A stretch of DNA of 64,000 nucleotides from Escherichia coli (GTDB taxonomy: Bacteria; Pseudomonadota; Gammaproteobacteria; Enterobacterales; Enterobacteriaceae), in NCBI RefSeq assembly GCF_003018255.1, contig NZ_CP027440.1, one strand, 5' to 3'. Position 1 is the stretch's first letter, and each line of letters opens with the position of its first letter. This document shows positions 1,859 to 56,139 of the stretch, in pieces. The position numbers and the translations under genes are program-made. The notes beneath the pieces were generated by a model. It was not told the DNA's origin. It saw only the letters and a list, made by a program, of their open reading frames with translations, and did not search any database.

Positions 1859-4460
1859 AGCGCAGATTAAAAATAAACGCCGTATCTCACCTTTCTGGCT
1901 GCTGCCGTTCATCGCGCTAATGATTGCCGGTTGGCTGATTTGGGATAGTTATCAGGACCGGGGTAATACCGTCACCATCGACTTTATGTCGGCGGATGGT
2001 ATTGTCCCGGGCCGCACCCCTGTTCGTTATCAGGGCGTTGAAGTCGGAACTGTGCAGGATATCAGCCTGAGCGACGATCTTCGTAAGATTGAAGTCAAGG
2101 TCAGCATCAAGTCTGATATGAAAGATGCGCTGCGCGAAGAGACACAGTTCTGGCTGGTGACGCCAAAGGCCTCACTGGCAGGTGTCTCCGGGCTGGATGC
2201 CCTCGTCGGTGGTAACTATATCGGCATGATGCCAGGTAAAGGTAAAGAGCAGGATCACTTTGTCGCACTCGATACCCAACCGAAGTATCGGCTGGATAAT
2301 GGCGATCTGATGATCCACCTGCAAGCCCCCGATCTCGGTTCACTGAACAGCGGTTCATTGGTCTATTTCCGTAAGATCCCGGTGGGTAAAGTCTACGACT
2401 ATGCCATCAATCCCAATAAGCAAGGCGTGGTGATTGATGTCCTGATCGAGCGGCGTTTTACCGACCTGGTGAAAAAAGGTAGCCGTTTCTGGAACGTTTC
2501 CGGCGTTGATGCCAACGTCAGTATCAGTGGCGCGAAGGTGAAACTGGAAAGTCTGGCGGCACTGGTTAACGGTGCGATTGCCTTCGATTCACCTGAAGAG
2601 TCGAAACCTGCCGAGGCGGAAGATACCTTTGGTCTGTATGAAGATCTCGCCCACAGCCAGCGTGGCGTAATAATAAAACTGGAACTGCCGAGTGGGGCCG
2701 GATTAACCGCCGACTCGACGCCGTTAATGTATCAGGGGCTGGAAGTCGGACAGCTGACTAAACTGGATTTAAATCCTGGTGGTAAAGTCACCGGAGAAAT
2801 GACCGTTGATCCCAGCGTCGTTACGCTGTTACGGGAAAATACCCGCATCGAATTACGTAATCCGAAATTATCCCTTAGCGATGCCAATCTCAGCGCCCTG
2901 CTGACCGGAAAAACCTTTGAGTTGGTGCCCGGCGATGGTGAGCCACGCAAAGAGTTCGTTGTTGTGCCAGGCGAAAAAGCCCTGCTACAAGAGCCGGATG
3001 TTCTGACACTGACCCTGACAGCACCAGAAAGTTACGGTATTGATGCTGGTCAGCCGCTCATTCTCCACGGTGTGCAAGTAGGCCAGGTTATTGATCGTAA
3101 ACTCACCAGCAAAGGCGTTACCTTTACCGTCGCCATCGAGCCTCAGCATCGCGAACTGGTAAAAGGCGATAGCAAATTTGTCGTCAACAGCCGTGTCGAC
3201 GTGAAGGTGGGGCTGGATGGCGTTGAGTTTCTCGGTGCCAGCGCCTCAGAATGGATTAACGGCGGGATACGTATTCTGCCGGGCGATAAAGGCGAGATGA
3301 AAGCCAGCTATCCACTGTATGCCAATCTGGAAAAAGCGCTGGAGAACAGCCTTAGCGATTTACCCACCACAACCGTAAGTTTGAGTGCAGAGACGCTGCC
3401 GGATGTGCAGGCAGGATCGGTAGTGCTGTACCGTAAATTTGAAGTTGGTGAAGTTATTACTGTGCGTCCGCGAGCTAACGCGTTTGATATCGATCTGCAT
3501 ATTAAGCCGGAGTATCGCAACCTTCTGACCAGCAACAGCGTGTTCTGGGCAGAAGGTGGGGCGAAAGTTCAGCTAAATGGTAGTGGTCTGACCGTACAGG
3601 CATCCCCGCTCTCCAGAGCATTAAAGGGGGCTATTAGCTTCGATAACCTCAGCGGTGCCAGCGCCAGTCAGCGTAAAGGCGACAAGCGTATTCTGTATGC
3701 TTCCGAAACAGCGGCCCGTGCGGTTGGCGGGCAAATTACGCTTCACGCTTTCGATGCCGGAAAACTGGCGGTCGGGATGCCAATTCGCTATCTCGGTATT
3801 GATATCGGGCAAATCCAGACGCTGGATCTGATTACCGCGCGCAATGAAGTACAGGCAAAGGCGGTACTTTACCCGGAATATGTCCAGACCTTTGCACGCG
3901 GTGGTACACGCTTCTCAGTGGTCACACCGCAAATTTCGGCAGCTGGCGTTGAGCATCTTGATACTATCCTCCAGCCGTATATCAACGTCGAACCAGGCCG
4001 GGGCAATCCTCGGCGCGACTTTGAATTACAAGAGGCTACCATAACTGATTCGCGTTACCTGGATGGCTTAAGCATTATTGTTGAAGCGCCGGAAGCCGGT
4101 TCGTTAGGCATCGGTACGCCTGTGCTGTTCCGTGGTCTGGAAGTCGGTACGGTTACCGGAATGACGCTGGGGACATTGTCAGATCGCGTGATGATTGCGA
4201 TGCGCATCAGTAAACGCTATCAACACCTGGTGCGTAACAATTCCGTCTTCTGGTTGGCATCGGGTTACAGTCTGGACTTTGGTCTGACGGGCGGCGTAGT
4301 GAAAACCGGCACCTTTAACCAGTTTATCCGTGGCGGCATCGCCTTCGCCACGCCTCCGGGTACGCCACTGGCACCGAAAGCCCAGGAAGGCAAGCACTTC
4401 CTGTTGCAGGAAAGTGAACCGAAAGAGTGGCGTGAATGGGGAACTGCGCTTCCCAAATAA
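1827..4460 (+). CDS. letB: Multi-MCE-domain periplasm-spanning tunnel protein LetB
   Basis: 877 aa from [27 protein letters not shown] (ORF track starts 14 codons earlier). Repeated MCE-like modules and an N-terminal TM anchor; overlaps the letA 3' end by 32 nt. Matches YebT. Confidence 0.9.
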
Positions 4461-13363: not shown

Positions 13364-14023
13364 TTACTCCGCCAAAGTACGTTTTTGCTGTTCGAGATCG
13401 CGTTCAATGCCTTCACGAACATCCTGGGGGATTTTCAGCGCATCACCCAGTGCATTCAGGTAACTGCGTTCCATAAAATGGTCAATATCAATAGCCGCGC
13501 AGCTCAGGAAATAGATTTCCAGCGCCTCTTCTTCATTGCGGACCCCGGTAGCCAGGCGTTGTGGATCCAGCGGTTGTTCGATTGCCTGCTCAATGAGTAC
13601 ACGCCCCTTCTCTTCCACACCGGCTTCTCGCAATTGCTGGTCGATTGCCGCACGTTCTTTGGCATCAATATGGCCATCACTTTTAGCGGCAAAGACCAGC
13701 GCAAGGATCAAACGTTCCGTACGCTCATCCAGCGGCGTACTTTGCGCGCCAAACTGCGGTTCATCCTGATGCGCCGCGCGAATTTTATCTTTGTATTTAT
13801 TCCACAGCACCGTACCCGCTACCGCTCCGCCGCCAACCAGTAACGCGTTTGTGCCATATTTCGTAAGAAGTTTACGTGCTGATTTATTTGCGACCAGCAG
13901 CCCAGCCAGTCCGCCTAATGCGCCAGGCACTAAAAGTTTGCCCAATCCCTGATCCGCAGACGAGGAGGTAGAAGAACGGCTTTGCCCAAGCAGGGATTGC
14001 AGTTGATTTAACCAGTTAGCCAT
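13364..14023 (-). CDS. yebE: Inner membrane protein YebE (DUF533)
   Basis: 219 aa ORF matching YebE. Confidence 0.8.
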
Positions 14024-14349
14024 ATTTGCTCCTCAATAACCATTTTTAGTGCCTGTAGCATAGCGGATGAGGATGTCAGAAAATGTATATTGAGACAAAA
14101 GATGCGCAAATAAGCGGGGCGGTAGGCCGTTATTCAAAGAAATTCGCGCCAGGTAAGGTGTTCACTGTATATAAGGTGATAAGGGTATTTTAGGTGAAAG
14201 TAGTTTGACGTTTTGAGTGGAACTGTTTGATGCTGATTGCCCGGTTCGACGCTGCTGCGTCTTCTCAGGACTACGATTGTGTTGCGTTGTAGGGCGGACA
14301 AGGCACTCGCGCCGTATCCGCCAACGGTCAATCGAATTATCAGAAGCCA

Positions 14350-14754
<405 letters not shown>

Positions 14755-14772
14755 TCAGGAGCGCAAGTTGCT

Positions 14773-15063
14773 TCAGGCCGCGTGTGAGGCATCTTCCTCT
14801 TCGGATTCAGCACCGACGACCTGTGGGGACGGTAATTTGCCGGTTTTCAGAATGGTGCTCAGCACATCTTTTTGTTCTGCCAGCCATAGCGAAAGGGCTT
14901 CACGTTGCTCGTCTTCCATTTGCACTGGAGAATTTGTCAGCCAGGTGTCAAGCAGATCCGCCGTATCAAGCATTTTGTCATAAGCATCGGCTTCCTTTTT
15001 GCTGGTAAACGACATTTTCTCTTCGCCCTCACGAATGACTACGTATTTAACTTCAACCGCCAT
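14773..15063 (-). CDS. yebG: DNA-damage-inducible protein YebG
   Basis: 96 aa MAVEVKYVVIREGEEKMSFTSKKEADAYDKML...; a LexA box sits immediately upstream. Confidence 0.85.
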   Translation of the reverse strand: MAVEVKYVVIREGEEKMSFTSKKEADAYDKMLDTADLLDTWLTNSPVQMEDEQREALSLWLAEQKDVLSTILKTGKLPSPQVVGAESEEEDASHAA

Positions 15064-15082
15064 TTGCAGCCTCTCATAATAA

Positions 15083-15098
15083 CTGTGATTTTATACAG
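15083..15098. promoter_or_regulatory. LexA (SOS) box upstream of yebG
   Basis: Plus strand aaCTGtgattttataCAGta, a CTG-N10-CAG palindrome; reverse complement TACTGTATAAAATCACAGTT. Confidence 0.7.
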
Positions 15099-15143
15099 TA
15101 TATTTCTTCTCGATTGGGAAATCAACATCAACAATAAAGACAC

Positions 15144-15159
15144 GCGCAAACGTTTTCGT
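15144..15159. promoter_or_regulatory. PurR operator (PUR box) upstream of purT
   Basis: GCGCAAACGTTTTCGT closely matches the PUR box consensus aCGCAAACGTTTTCtT, about 40 bp upstream of the purT start. Confidence 0.6.
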
Positions 15160-15196
15160 TTATACTGCGCGCGGAATAAATCAGGGGATATTCGTT

Positions 15197-16375
15197 ATGA
15201 CGTTATTAGGCACTGCGCTGCGTCCGGCAGCAACTCGCGTGATGTTATTAGGCTCCGGTGAACTGGGTAAAGAAGTGGCAATCGAGTGTCAGCGTCTCGG
15301 CGTAGAGGTGATTGCCGTCGATCGCTATGCCGACGCACCAGCCATGCATGTCGCGCATCGCTCCCATGTCATTAATATGCTTGATGGTGATGCATTACGC
15401 CGTGTGGTTGAACTGGAAAAACCACATTATATCGTGCCGGAGATCGAAGCTATTGCCACCGATATGCTGATCCAACTTGAAGAGGAAGGACTGAATGTTG
15501 TCCCCTGCGCTCGCGCAACGAAATTAACGATGAATCGCGAGGGTATCCGTCGCCTGGCAGCAGAAGAGCTGCAGCTGCCCACTTCCACTTATCGTTTTGC
15601 CGATAACGAAAACCTTTTCCGCGAGGCGGTTGCTGAAATCGGCTATCCCTGCATTGTTAAACCGGTGATGAGTTCCTCCGGCAAGGGGCAGACGTTTATT
15701 CGTTCTGCAGAGCAACTTGCTCATGCATGGGAGTACGCTCAGCAAGGCGGTCGCGCCGGAGCGGGCCGCGTAATTGTTGAAGGCGTCGTTAAGTTTGACT
15801 TCGAAATTACCCTGCTAACCGTCAGCGCGGTGGATGGCGTCCATTTCTGTGCACCGGTAGGTCATCGCCAGGAAGATGGCGACTATCGTGAATCCTGGCA
15901 ACCACAGCAAATGAGCCAGCTGGCTTTGGAACGTGCGCAAGAGATTGCCCGTAAAGTGGTGCTGGCACTGGGCGGTTATGGGCTGTTTGGTGTCGAGCTG
16001 TTTGTCTGTGGTGATGAGGTGATTTTCAGTGAGGTCTCCCCTCGCCCACATGATACCGGGATGGTGACGTTAATTTCTCAGGATCTCTCGGAGTTTGCCC
16101 TGCATGTGCGAGCCTTTCTCGGACTTCCGGTTGGCGGGATCCGTCAGTATGGTCCTGCAGCTTCTGCCGTTATCCTGCCACAACTGACCAGTCAGAATGT
16201 CACGTTTGATAATGTGCAGAATGCCGTAGGCGCAGGCATACAGATTCGTTTATTTGGTAAGCCGGAAATTGATGGCAGCCGTCGTCTGGGTGTTGCGCTG
16301 GCGACCGCTGAGAGTGTTGATGAAGCGATTGAGCGCGCAAAGCACGCCGCCGGACAGGTAAAAGTACAGGGTTAA
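15197..16375 (+). CDS. purT: Formate-dependent phosphoribosylglycinamide formyltransferase (GAR transformylase T)
   Basis: 392 aa ATP-grasp protein beginning [27 protein letters not shown]. Matches PurT. Confidence 0.9.
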
Positions 16376-16400
16376 ACCCGGCAAAAAAACGCTACAAAAA

Positions 16401-16425
16401 TGCCCGATCCTCGATCGGGCATTTT
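16401..16425. terminator. Hairpin plus T-tract between convergent purT and eda
   Basis: TGCCCGATCCTCGATCGGGCATTTT; a perfect stem with flanking A and T runs, so potentially bidirectional. Confidence 0.5.
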
Positions 16426-16430
16426 GACTT

Positions 16431-17072
16431 TTACAGCTTAGCGCCTTCTACAGCTTCACGCGCCAGCTTAGTAATGCGGTCGTAATCGCCCGCTTCCAGC
16501 GCATCTGCCGGAACCAGCCAGGAACCACCGATGCACAGCACGCTTTTCAGCGCCAGGTAGTCACGGTAGTTAGCCGGAGAAATACCACCTGTCGGGCAGA
16601 AACGGACCTGGGAGAACGGACCCGCGATCGCCTGCAGGGCTTTCACACCGCCGTTAGCTTCAGCCGGGAAGAATTTGAACTCTTTCAAACCGTAGTCCAT
16701 ACCCAGCATCAGTTCGGAAACAGTGCTGATCCCCGGAATCAGAGGAATAGTCCCTTCGGTAGCAGCTTTCAGCAGCGGCTCGGTCAGACCCGGGCTAATT
16801 GCAAACTGTGCACCCGCTTCAGTGACTTCTGCCAGCTGCTGTGGATTCAGCACCGTACCGGCACCCACAATCGCTTCAGGCACTTCTTTGGCGATAGCAC
16901 GGATAGCGTCAACTGCGCACTCGGTACGCAGAGTCACTTCCAGAACGCGCACCCCACCAGCAACCAACGCTTTTGCCATCGGCACCGCGTGTTCCAGTTT
17001 TTTTACCACGATAACCGGTACAACCGGGCCGGTGGTCAGGATTGATTCTGCACTTGTTTTCCAGTTTTTCAT
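16431..17072 (-). CDS. eda: KDPG / KHG aldolase
   Basis: 213 aa. Matches Eda. Confidence 0.9.
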
Positions 17073-30294: not shown

Positions 30295-30346
30295 ATGACG
30301 CTCCTGCGTAATGAATCAAAGATAATGCTGTATGATAAAAAAATGC

Positions 30347-30362
30347 TGGATAGATATCCAGC
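30347..30362. promoter_or_regulatory. LexA (SOS) box of the ruvAB promoter
   Basis: CTGGATAGATATCCAG, a CTG-N10-CAG perfect palindrome about 55 bp upstream of ruvA; the 20-mer context CGCTGGATATCTATCCAGCA matches the ruvAB SOS box as I recall it. Confidence 0.75.
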
Positions 30363-30568
30363 GAAGGATGAAGAAAACTTGCGAGGTGTCCCGATGATCT
30401 GAAAAATGGCGCAGTATAATTTATTCTACAGATTATATTGGAAGCAAATATTTAAATATTACATATTCAGCGAAGAAATGTGTAATAAAAATACACATCG
30501 CGACCCCTGAAAAAATAAATTTTTTATGCTATTACGTATATTCATATCTATTTCAATGGAATGACAAC

Positions 30569-54477: not shown

Positions 54478-56139
54478 TCAAAATGTTTCCCAGTTTGGAT
54501 CTTGTTCAGCAATTCGCAGTCGTGGCTGTGCCGGTGGTTGCTCACTGGCAGGACGGGATGGTGTTTGCGGTTTATTGGTGAGTGGGCTGGCTGCCAGACG
54601 GAACGCGGAAACCGCTTGCGTTAAACGACTCGCCTGTTCTTCCAGCGCAGCTGCGGCGGCAGCTGATTCCTGCACCAGCGATGCGTTCTGTTGCGTGACG
54701 CGATCCATTTCCGAAACCGCCAATGCGACTTGATCGATGCCACGGCTCTGTTCATCCGATGCCGATGCAATCTCGCCCATAATGTCAGTCACGCGAGTGA
54801 CAGCATTGACGATATTGTTCATTGTTTCCCCGGCGCTTTCGACCAGCACCGAACCGGTATCAACGCGCGAGACGGAGTCTTCAATGAGGGCTTTGATCTC
54901 TTTTGCCGCCTGGGCGCTGCGACTGGCAAGATTACGCACTTCGCCCGCCACCACGGCAAAACCACGGCCCTGTTCACCCGCTCGTGCGGCTTCAACAGCG
55001 GCATTCAGCGCGAGGATATTAGTCTGGAAGGCAATACCATCGATAACGCTGATAATGTCGGCAATTTTCTTCGAACTATCGGCGATCTCATGCATCGTTT
55101 TCACTACGCCATCCACCACTTTGCCGCCGTGCTGGGCGGTGTCGGAGGCACTTTGCGCCAGTTGCGAGGCCTGGCGGGCGTTATCGGCGTTTTGCTTCAC
55201 TGTCGCGGTGAGCTGCTCCATGCTGGCGGCAGTTTCTTCCAGCGCGGATGCCTGCTGTTCCGTACGGGAGGAAAGATCGGTGTTGCCCGCCGCAATTTCA
55301 CGGGTACCGGCATAGATGGCATCTGAACCTTCACGCACATGAGTGACGGTGTCAGTCAAAGAGCGTTGCATATGTGAAACGCTCTGCGCCAGGTCGCCCA
55401 TTTCACTGCGCCCGTCAATGGTCAGGGTATTCGCCAGGTTACCACCGGCGATTTCGCGAATGTGAGCAATAATTTTTGCCAGCGGTGTAAGCAACATACG
55501 GCGAATGCCGTACCACGCCACCAGCAGAATCAATACCACCACCAGCGCGATAACCGCCAGTTGCCACTGGGCAAATCGGTAATCATCTGCGTTGTCAGTG
55601 ACGATATCGCGATACAGTTTTTCACTGCTGAGGGCGTACTGAGCAAACGCTTCGCCCATTGCATTTTGCATTCCCTGGGTTGGCTGAGCGAAATAAGCTC
55701 CAGTATTGCCATAATCAAGATAATCAATCAGTTCAGTTAACGCTGTGTGATAGTTTTTATATTTTTCATCAATATTACGACTGGTAGCGACCATTTCAGG
55801 TAACGGTGCCATGCTTTTGAATTTTTTATAATGAGTCGCTGCCTGGGCCAATGTTTTCCTGGCGCTATCGAGCAATTCAACTTTGGCATTACTTTGCTGA
55901 TTGGATGAATCCATCATCATCCGCACCGCTGAACGACTCAGGTTAATGCGCGTTTGCAGCATTAAATCCCATGTTGACGTCAGCTCGCCCTGCTGTTCCC
56001 GTAATTGATTGGAAACCACAAAGCTCTTCTGGCTATGGTGAAGGGAAGAAAAAAACAGACTGCCGGAAATAAGCTGTAACAGTGCGAATACCCCCAGCAC
56101 CATTACCAACAGCGTGACTACGCGGATACGGTTAATCAT
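54478..56139 (-). CDS. tar: Methyl-accepting chemotaxis protein II (aspartate / maltose sensor)
   Basis: 553 aa from [23 protein letters not shown]; ends with the NWETF pentapeptide. Confidence 0.9.

Follow-up and report, generated by a model that had tools for sequence, protein, structure and literature searches.

Adjacent LexA and PurR operators between yebG and purT of Escherichia coli: very probably two independent simple-repression promoters

Does the close packing of two operators in one divergent spacer mean that the genes on either side are regulated together? The question is raised by the region between yebG and purT of Escherichia coli, in which a LexA operator (SOS box) and a PurR operator (PUR box) lie back to back. 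The initial annotation, made from the sequence, proposed that this arrangement "couples" a DNA damage-inducible gene pair and a purine biosynthesis gene "through one compact control region." The spacer was analyzed here as part of a 64-kb stretch of DNA, hereafter the window. In all probability, the spacer contains two sigma-70-type promoters, each under simple repression and independent of the other, which stand back to back with their -35 hexamers 11 bp apart. The LexA and PurR dependence of the two genes and the positions of the sites have been shown by others in K-12; the identity, statistical strength, and conservation of the sites come from the present analysis.

The locus and its two operators

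The DNA derives from the E. coli chromosome: a 2.1-kb query around the spacer found matches in 5,425 of the 5,426 complete genomes of this species, at 100% in three. Gene names were taken from K-12, from Pfam, and from E. coli genomes identical or nearly so, as annotated in RefSeq. Three genes frame the region:

14350..14706, minus strand: yebF coding sequence, 118 aa by the K-12 annotation (open reading frame list, RefSeq annotation)
14773..15063, minus strand: yebG coding sequence, DNA damage-inducible protein YebG, 96 aa (open reading frame list, RefSeq, K-12)
15197..16375, plus strand: purT coding sequence, formate-dependent GAR transformylase, 392 aa (open reading frame list, RefSeq, K-12)

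Their products match Pfam YebF (PF13995, E=8e-44), YebG (PF07130, E=4e-34), and ATP-grasp together with PurT_C, respectively. In yebF, an in-frame ATG at 14718 gives an open reading frame of 122 aa, slightly longer than the 118 aa annotated in K-12. The yebG/purT spacer occupies 15064..15196 and measures exactly 133 bp from start codon to start codon, with yebG on the minus and purT on the plus strand, just as the initial annotation described it. In K-12 MG1655 the spacer has the same length and differs at six single bases; the LexA box and the promoter hexamers are free of such differences, and the PUR box carries one, at its outermost position. When the spacer was searched for repeats, only the PUR-box palindrome and an imperfect, GC-rich one across the purT -10 and start region came up, and no RNA family was detected inside the spacer by an Rfam scan of 14000..16500. 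Downstream of yebF, in the yebE-yebF intergenic region (14292..14368 of the window), the REP-derived family naRNA4 matches below threshold, at 25.6 bits where the gathering score is 59.5; this match is probably a REP element.

Two operators were identified within the spacer:

15081..15100, minus strand: LexA operator (SOS box) of yebG, a 20-mer reading TACTGTATAAAATCACAGTT on the yebG strand and AACTGTGATTTTATACAGTA on the plus strand
15144..15159, minus strand: PurR operator (PUR box) of purT, a 16-mer reading ACGAAAACGTTTGCGC on the minus strand and GCGCAAACGTTTTCGT on the plus strand

The LexA 20-mer stops 17 bp short of the yebG ATG. Its CTG-N10-CAG core (15083..15098) reads CTGTGATTTTATACAG and forms a CTGT-N8-ACAG palindrome within the 20-bp AT-rich site. 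The box is without differences from that of K-12 and is identical to the yebG box published in Table 4 of PMC3009722. A search with the 20-mer LexA consensus at up to three mismatches found no site, because the yebG site carries five mismatches to the idealized consensus; this search was too strict, and weight matrices were therefore used. The LexA matrix was built from 16 published boxes (PMC3009722, Table 4), with those of yebG and ruvA left out. Over the 64-kb window, the yebG box ranks first at 21.2 bits, inside the 13.3-28.9 range of the training boxes, followed by the ruvA box at 19.2 bits and a third match at 13.5 bits. By the exact score distribution, about 1e-5 LexA hits of this strength are expected by chance in the 133-bp spacer. 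Recovery of the withheld ruvA site served as an internal positive control for the matrix:

30344..30363, strand not given: published ruvA SOS box, CGCTGGATATCTATCCAGCA, 19.2 bits, second LexA match in the window

The bare CTG-N10-CAG pattern was dropped as evidence for an SOS box, since the window contains 28 copies of it where dinucleotide shuffles predict 13.5. This roughly twofold excess probably stems from CTG and CAG being frequent or favored codons, and it warns against calling SOS boxes by the core pattern alone.

Experimental work on K-12 bears on the same site. Sort-Seq of the yebG promoter resolved LexA and RNA polymerase sites, and induction by mitomycin C was confirmed (Belliveau 2018; PMC6003448). 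In an RNA-seq study of 2024, yebG was induced 4.4-fold by AZT and depended 9.7-fold on lexA, and its box had a heterology index of 6.3 (PMC11228462). In every sequence-level feature, the yebG box is thus a gammaproteobacterial LexA operator, and the binding evidence for the identical K-12 site is found in the literature. The canonical SOS box that the initial annotation placed upstream of yebG therefore stands, as the best site for the LexA matrix in the window.

The PUR box stops 37 bp short of the purT ATG. It matches ACGCAAACGTTTGCGT, a 16-bp palindrome with a central CG, at 14 of 16 positions and is the sole site in the window within three mismatches of it. A PurR matrix was built from 27 ChIP-chip motif sites (PMC3159470, Table 1), with purT left out. 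The purT box again scores highest in the 64-kb window, at 22.6 bits, inside the 12.0-23.5 range of those 27 sites, and the next match reaches 17.4 bits; about 2e-6 PurR hits this strong are expected by chance in the 133-bp spacer. The runner-up was set aside as a probable chance match, as it falls within a coding sequence, is absent from the ChIP-chip list, and has a strength at which about 0.09 hits per window are expected:

54606..54621, in the tar coding sequence (methyl-accepting chemotaxis protein II, minus strand): second-best PurR-like 16-mer, CGGAAACCGCTTGCGT, 17.4 bits

At position 15144, the outermost base of the PUR box, this strain has G and K-12 has A, which gives scores of 22.6 and 24.7 bits, respectively. 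The G variant is also present in the GTDB E. coli representative, in E. albertii, and in the natural purHD site. Judged from the matrix, it could slightly weaken PurR repression in this strain.

In K-12, purT falls in a PurR ChIP-chip region with the motif ACGAAAACGTTTGCGT and is listed among those genes that PurR represses directly. The ChIP-chip peak is stronger with adenine (2.00 vs 1.02), and purT expression depends on adenine and purR (Cho 2011; PMC3159470). Applied to the purT promoter, Sort-Seq revealed a -35 and a -10 element with a repressor site between them that is seen only with adenine. In DNA-affinity mass spectrometry this site enriches PurR in the presence of hypoxanthine, and it is gone in a purR deletion (Belliveau 2018; PMC6003448). 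On sequence-level grounds, the purT box qualifies in every respect as a PurR operator, and binding is documented in the literature for the K-12 allele, which differs at one outer base. The PUR box upstream of purT, also part of the initial annotation, is accordingly a known K-12 operator as well as the best PurR matrix site in the window. The two operators are 43 bp apart from 20-mer to 16-mer, or 45 bp from CAG to PUR box, in keeping with the "about 45 bp" given earlier. In the scan with LexA and PurR weight matrices that had been proposed as a check, no other site of the 64-kb window scores as high as the box in question (21.2 bits for LexA and 22.6 bits for PurR).

Placement of the operators within the promoters

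A consensus scan of 14300..15400 found exactly two promoter-like sites, one for yebG and one for purT:

15120..15125, minus strand: yebG promoter-like -35, TTGATT, 17 bp from the -10 (consensus scan)
15097..15102, minus strand: yebG promoter-like -10, TATACT, overlapping the LexA box by 4 bp (consensus scan)
15137..15142, plus strand: purT promoter-like -35, AAGACA, 18 bp from the -10 (consensus scan)
15161..15166, plus strand: purT promoter-like -10, TATACT (consensus scan)

These hexamers and the corresponding transcription starts are predicted from consensus matches together with conservation. The two -35 hexamers face away from each other across 11 bp, so that the promoters would stand back to back. 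The same -10 hexamer, TATACT, occurs in both. On these consensus matches, the LexA box overlaps the yebG promoter, covering 4 bp of its TATACT and the predicted start region. Between AAGACA and TATACT of purT there are 18 bp, of which the PUR box takes up 16, a placement that agrees with Sort-Seq.

After the purT -10 comes a GC-rich stretch that is conserved, GCGCGCGG (15167..15174), and that forms an imperfect palindrome with its flanks (15159..15180). A GC-rich discriminator is typical of promoters under stringent (ppGpp) control, and the purT stretch may be a discriminator of this type. Genomic SELEX has placed the strongest sigma-S holoenzyme peak in the K-12 genome at the purT 5' end and a second one in the yebG/purT spacer (PMC5493296).

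For yebG, a different register can be tentatively considered, though it is the less likely of the two. Here the -10 would be TAAAAT (15093..15088, minus strand), which lies inside the LexA box, so that LexA would cover the -10 itself and repression would be unchanged. This register would fit the report that the yebG RNA polymerase site is placed 9 bp downstream of an earlier (1997) computational annotation (Belliveau 2018; PMC6003448), as the distance from TATACT downstream to TAAAAT is exactly 9 bp; the reported shift could, however, equally be onto TATACT. The -35 that would match TAAAAT (15116..15111) is CAATCG here and CAACCG in K-12, a poor element that varies between species, whereas the TTGA-17 bp-TATACT arrangement is kept from Escherichia to Erwinia, also at bases that the LexA 20-mer does not cover. 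TATACT is the more probable -10 of yebG.

With TATACT as the -10, a LexA dimer bound to the 20-bp SOS box over the -10 and start region of yebG would block RNA polymerase. DNA damage would lead to RecA-stimulated self-cleavage of LexA and free the yebG promoter, and transcription would then run on into yebF, because no terminator separates the two genes: no terminator-like hairpin was found between yebG and yebF (14707..14772). In K-12, a single UV-induced transcript touches yebG and yebF, and yebF was described from lexA mutants as "under full LexA control" (Thomassen 2010; PMC3009722). Upon SOS induction, the mRNAs of yebF and yebG increase in parallel (PMC11002266), and in a Salmonella study yebF and yebE were treated as co-induced by read-through (PMC8072944). 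The suggestion that the downstream yebF is probably also damage-inducible is borne out by this LexA-dependent transcript, the parallel mRNAs, and the lack of a terminator, all of which support co-induction of yebF by read-through from yebG. On the purT side, PurR together with hypoxanthine or guanine would occupy the PUR box between the -35 and -10 and repress purT when purines are plentiful. Neither operator would overlap the promoter of the other gene, and neither repressor would be expected to affect the other gene.

Separate or joint control

The comparative evidence comes from a scan for YebG with one genome per species, which gave 80 loci from Escherichia, Citrobacter, Salmonella, Kosakonia, Klebsiella, Raoultella, Erwinia, Pantoea, Serratia, Yersinia, and others. 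In 79 of the 80, purT is divergent and upstream of yebG. A LexA box of at least 17.4 bits precedes yebG in 79 of these 80 Enterobacterales loci, and a PUR box of at least 18.6 bits precedes purT in all 79 loci with purT. The 79 orthologous LexA boxes comprise 40 distinct sequences, in which CTG and CAG are invariant (79/79) and the center varies; this is the pattern expected under selection on the contact bases. Within Escherichia itself the LexA box is polymorphic, for instance TACTGTATAAAAATACAGTT in locus L002, which scores 26.4 bits.

The two genes are directly divergent in 59 loci (Enterobacteriaceae and Erwiniaceae), with spacers of 128-141 bp and one exception of 261 bp. Best scores range from 17.4 to 29.3 bits for LexA and from 18.6 to 23.5 bits for PurR in this group. 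Between the LexA and PUR boxes, 54 loci have a gap of 41-45 bp, four have one of 51-55 bp, and a single locus has 170 bp. Four conserved blocks emerge when 34 spacers are aligned:

Block 1: LexA box with the adjoining TATA of the yebG -10
Block 2: TCAA, which is the TTGA of the yebG -35 on the other strand
Block 3: purT -35 in Enterobacteriaceae, AAAGACA
Block 4: PUR box, TATACT, and the GC-rich stretch after it

A GTATA block, two bases of which lie outside the LexA 20-mer, is kept from Escherichia to Erwinia, and the TTGA of the yebG -35 is kept at the same 17-bp spacing in Erwinia and Pantoea. The purT -10, TATAC/AT, is invariant or nearly so among the 34 aligned spacers.

Two natural arrangements separate the operators. 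In 20 Yersiniaceae loci, yebG and purT are 1,669-2,074 bp apart, with a dbpA-type DEAD-box helicase gene containing the DbpA RNA-binding domain between them. Coordinates within two of these loci are as follows:

L065, 1030..2412: dbpA-type gene between purT and yebG
L065, 2831..3172: ASCH-domain gene between yebG and yebF
L078, 1025..2407: dbpA-type gene between purT and yebG
L078, 2843..3169: ASCH-domain gene between yebG and yebF

Given these intervening genes, the E. coli gene order is either not ancestral to, or not retained in, Yersiniaceae. Throughout the 20 loci, both boxes are retained: that of LexA scores 18.4-28.4 bits and lies 16-38 bp from the yebG ATG, and the PUR box scores 20.0-23.5 bits at a distance of 56-87 bp from the purT ATG. 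The second arrangement is found in Klebsiella spallanzanii (locus L048, spacer 2240..2500), in which a 126-bp insertion between the -35 hexamers leaves the operators 170 bp apart and both intact. The insertion has an ERIC-like core, with 4-5 mismatches to each of the ERIC primer sequences. Each operator thus travels with its own gene, both when the pair is split (Yersiniaceae) and when it is spread by a repeat element (one Klebsiella species), which is a small comparative addition of the present work. The sole locus lacking a LexA box is that of Yersinia nurmii (L054, 2455..2474), in which the right half of the box, ATACAGTT, is kept and the left half is replaced by unrelated sequence. In this genome, purT was not found within 2.5 kb upstream of yebG, and the locus looks like a rearrangement breakpoint inside the operator.

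If the region were coupled, occupancy of one operator would affect the other promoter through competition for RNA polymerase, divergent-promoter supercoiling, or contacts between the repressors. LexA release or heavy yebG transcription, for example, would alter purT, and PurR binding would alter yebG. Such coupling is very improbable. The geometry at first seems to invite it, as the -35 hexamers of yebG and purT are merely 11 bp apart and the gap between the boxes stays at 41-45 bp in 54 of the 59 directly divergent loci. The three kinds of insertion on record (+8, +10 to +12, and +126 bp), all of which sit in the 11-bp stretch between the -35 hexamers, are moreover each within about 2.5 bp of whole helical turns, a fit that, with three events, is not significant (estimated chance probability of about 0.1). 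However, the 43-bp gap consists almost wholly of promoter hexamers and their fixed spacers, and its near-constancy follows from the packing of promoter elements between the operators. By the consensus hexamers, the center of the LexA box would lie about 82 bp upstream of the predicted purT start and that of the PUR box about 61 bp upstream of the predicted yebG start, in each case outside the core promoter of the other gene. An operator acting on both promoters was looked for in the spacer and not found, as each box appears to overlap the promoter-like site of its own gene only.

Published experiments also speak against coupling. The Sort-Seq features are directional, with LexA and RNA polymerase sites for yebG and PurR and RNA polymerase sites for purT only, and the figure that presents them is titled to the effect that the method "distinguishes directional regulatory features" (Belliveau 2018; PMC6003448). 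The PurT protein was unchanged in two SOS-induction proteome comparisons (log2 0.04 and -0.06, not significant), and in the same study YebG reached log2 2.93 (about 8-fold) at a later point. In addition, purT is not named among the UV- or SOS-induced genes in PMC3009722 and PMC11002266, and yebG is not mentioned in the PurR regulon paper (PMC3159470). The genes remain 1.7-2.1 kb apart in the 20 Yersiniaceae loci, each with its own box, and the extra 126 bp in K. spallanzanii came with the loss of neither box. The proposal that the spacer couples SOS and purine control is therefore not supported, in view of the overlap of each operator with its own promoter only, the directional Sort-Seq features, the Yersiniaceae split, and the unchanged PurT.

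A narrower version, which has if anything slightly poorer prospects, is that the near-constant gap might reflect selected cross-talk, with SOS-driven yebG transcription modulating purT through polymerase competition or supercoiling. Were this true, DNA repair would be linked to formate-dependent purine synthesis. That the boxes are chance motif matches without function is next to impossible: though bare CTG-N10-CAG is common in the window (28 matches) and a PurR score of 21.8 bits was reached in one of 100 random sequences of 64 kb, both boxes are the top weight-matrix sites, each at its own promoter, both are conserved across about 80 species, and both have been the subject of direct experiments in K-12, whose LexA box is the same and whose PUR box departs from this one at one outer base. 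Two independent promoters back to back is the reading retained, and the adjacency of the operators here is a matter of genome packing and not of shared regulation. Since the operators stay with their own genes upon separation, adjacency in a divergent spacer should not be read as regulatory coupling.

Relation to known systems

The yebG/purT control region of E. coli is already known from experiment, with each operator controlling its own gene only, and an earlier description of the K-12 region is reportedly that of Lomba in 1997. As a clean textbook case of two simple-repression promoters within 133 bp, the region has already served as a Sort-Seq test case, and its importance beyond correct annotation is slight. 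A literature search with the box sequence as a word found no paper, and the supplements of the tiling-array paper contain no mention of the purT and yebG genes.

The K-12 region (Cho 2011; Belliveau 2018) is the same locus, with the same 133-bp length, LexA box, hexamers, and PUR-box placement, from which the window departs by six single-base differences. Among PurR-regulated promoters, purT resembles 14 of the 32 promoter regions in which the PUR box lies between the -35 and -10 (Cho 2011; PMC3159470). PurR-repressed promoters of that type have a 16-bp palindrome with a central CG and are blocked at initiation, and purT shares the mechanism. In contrast, the PurR sites of purB and purR lie inside reading frames and act as roadblocks (PMC3159470).

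Among LexA-regulated genes, the boxes of ruvAB and yebG are alike in having the CTG-N10-CAG core and an intermediate heterology index (7.6 for ruvA and 6.3 for yebG; PMC11228462). The Salmonella yebG box is likewise 17 bp from the ATG, and a natural SNP within it changes the size of the uninduced ON subpopulation (PMC8072944). Both the ruvAB and the Salmonella yebG boxes differ from the yebG box of the window in their central AT-rich bases. A parallel in layout is uvrA/ssb, a divergent pair that, like yebG/purT, has a LexA box in a short common spacer (PMC8072944). However, the single SOS box of uvrA/ssb is described as common to both genes, whereas in the yebG/purT spacer the LexA box lies on the yebG promoter only and purT has another repressor.
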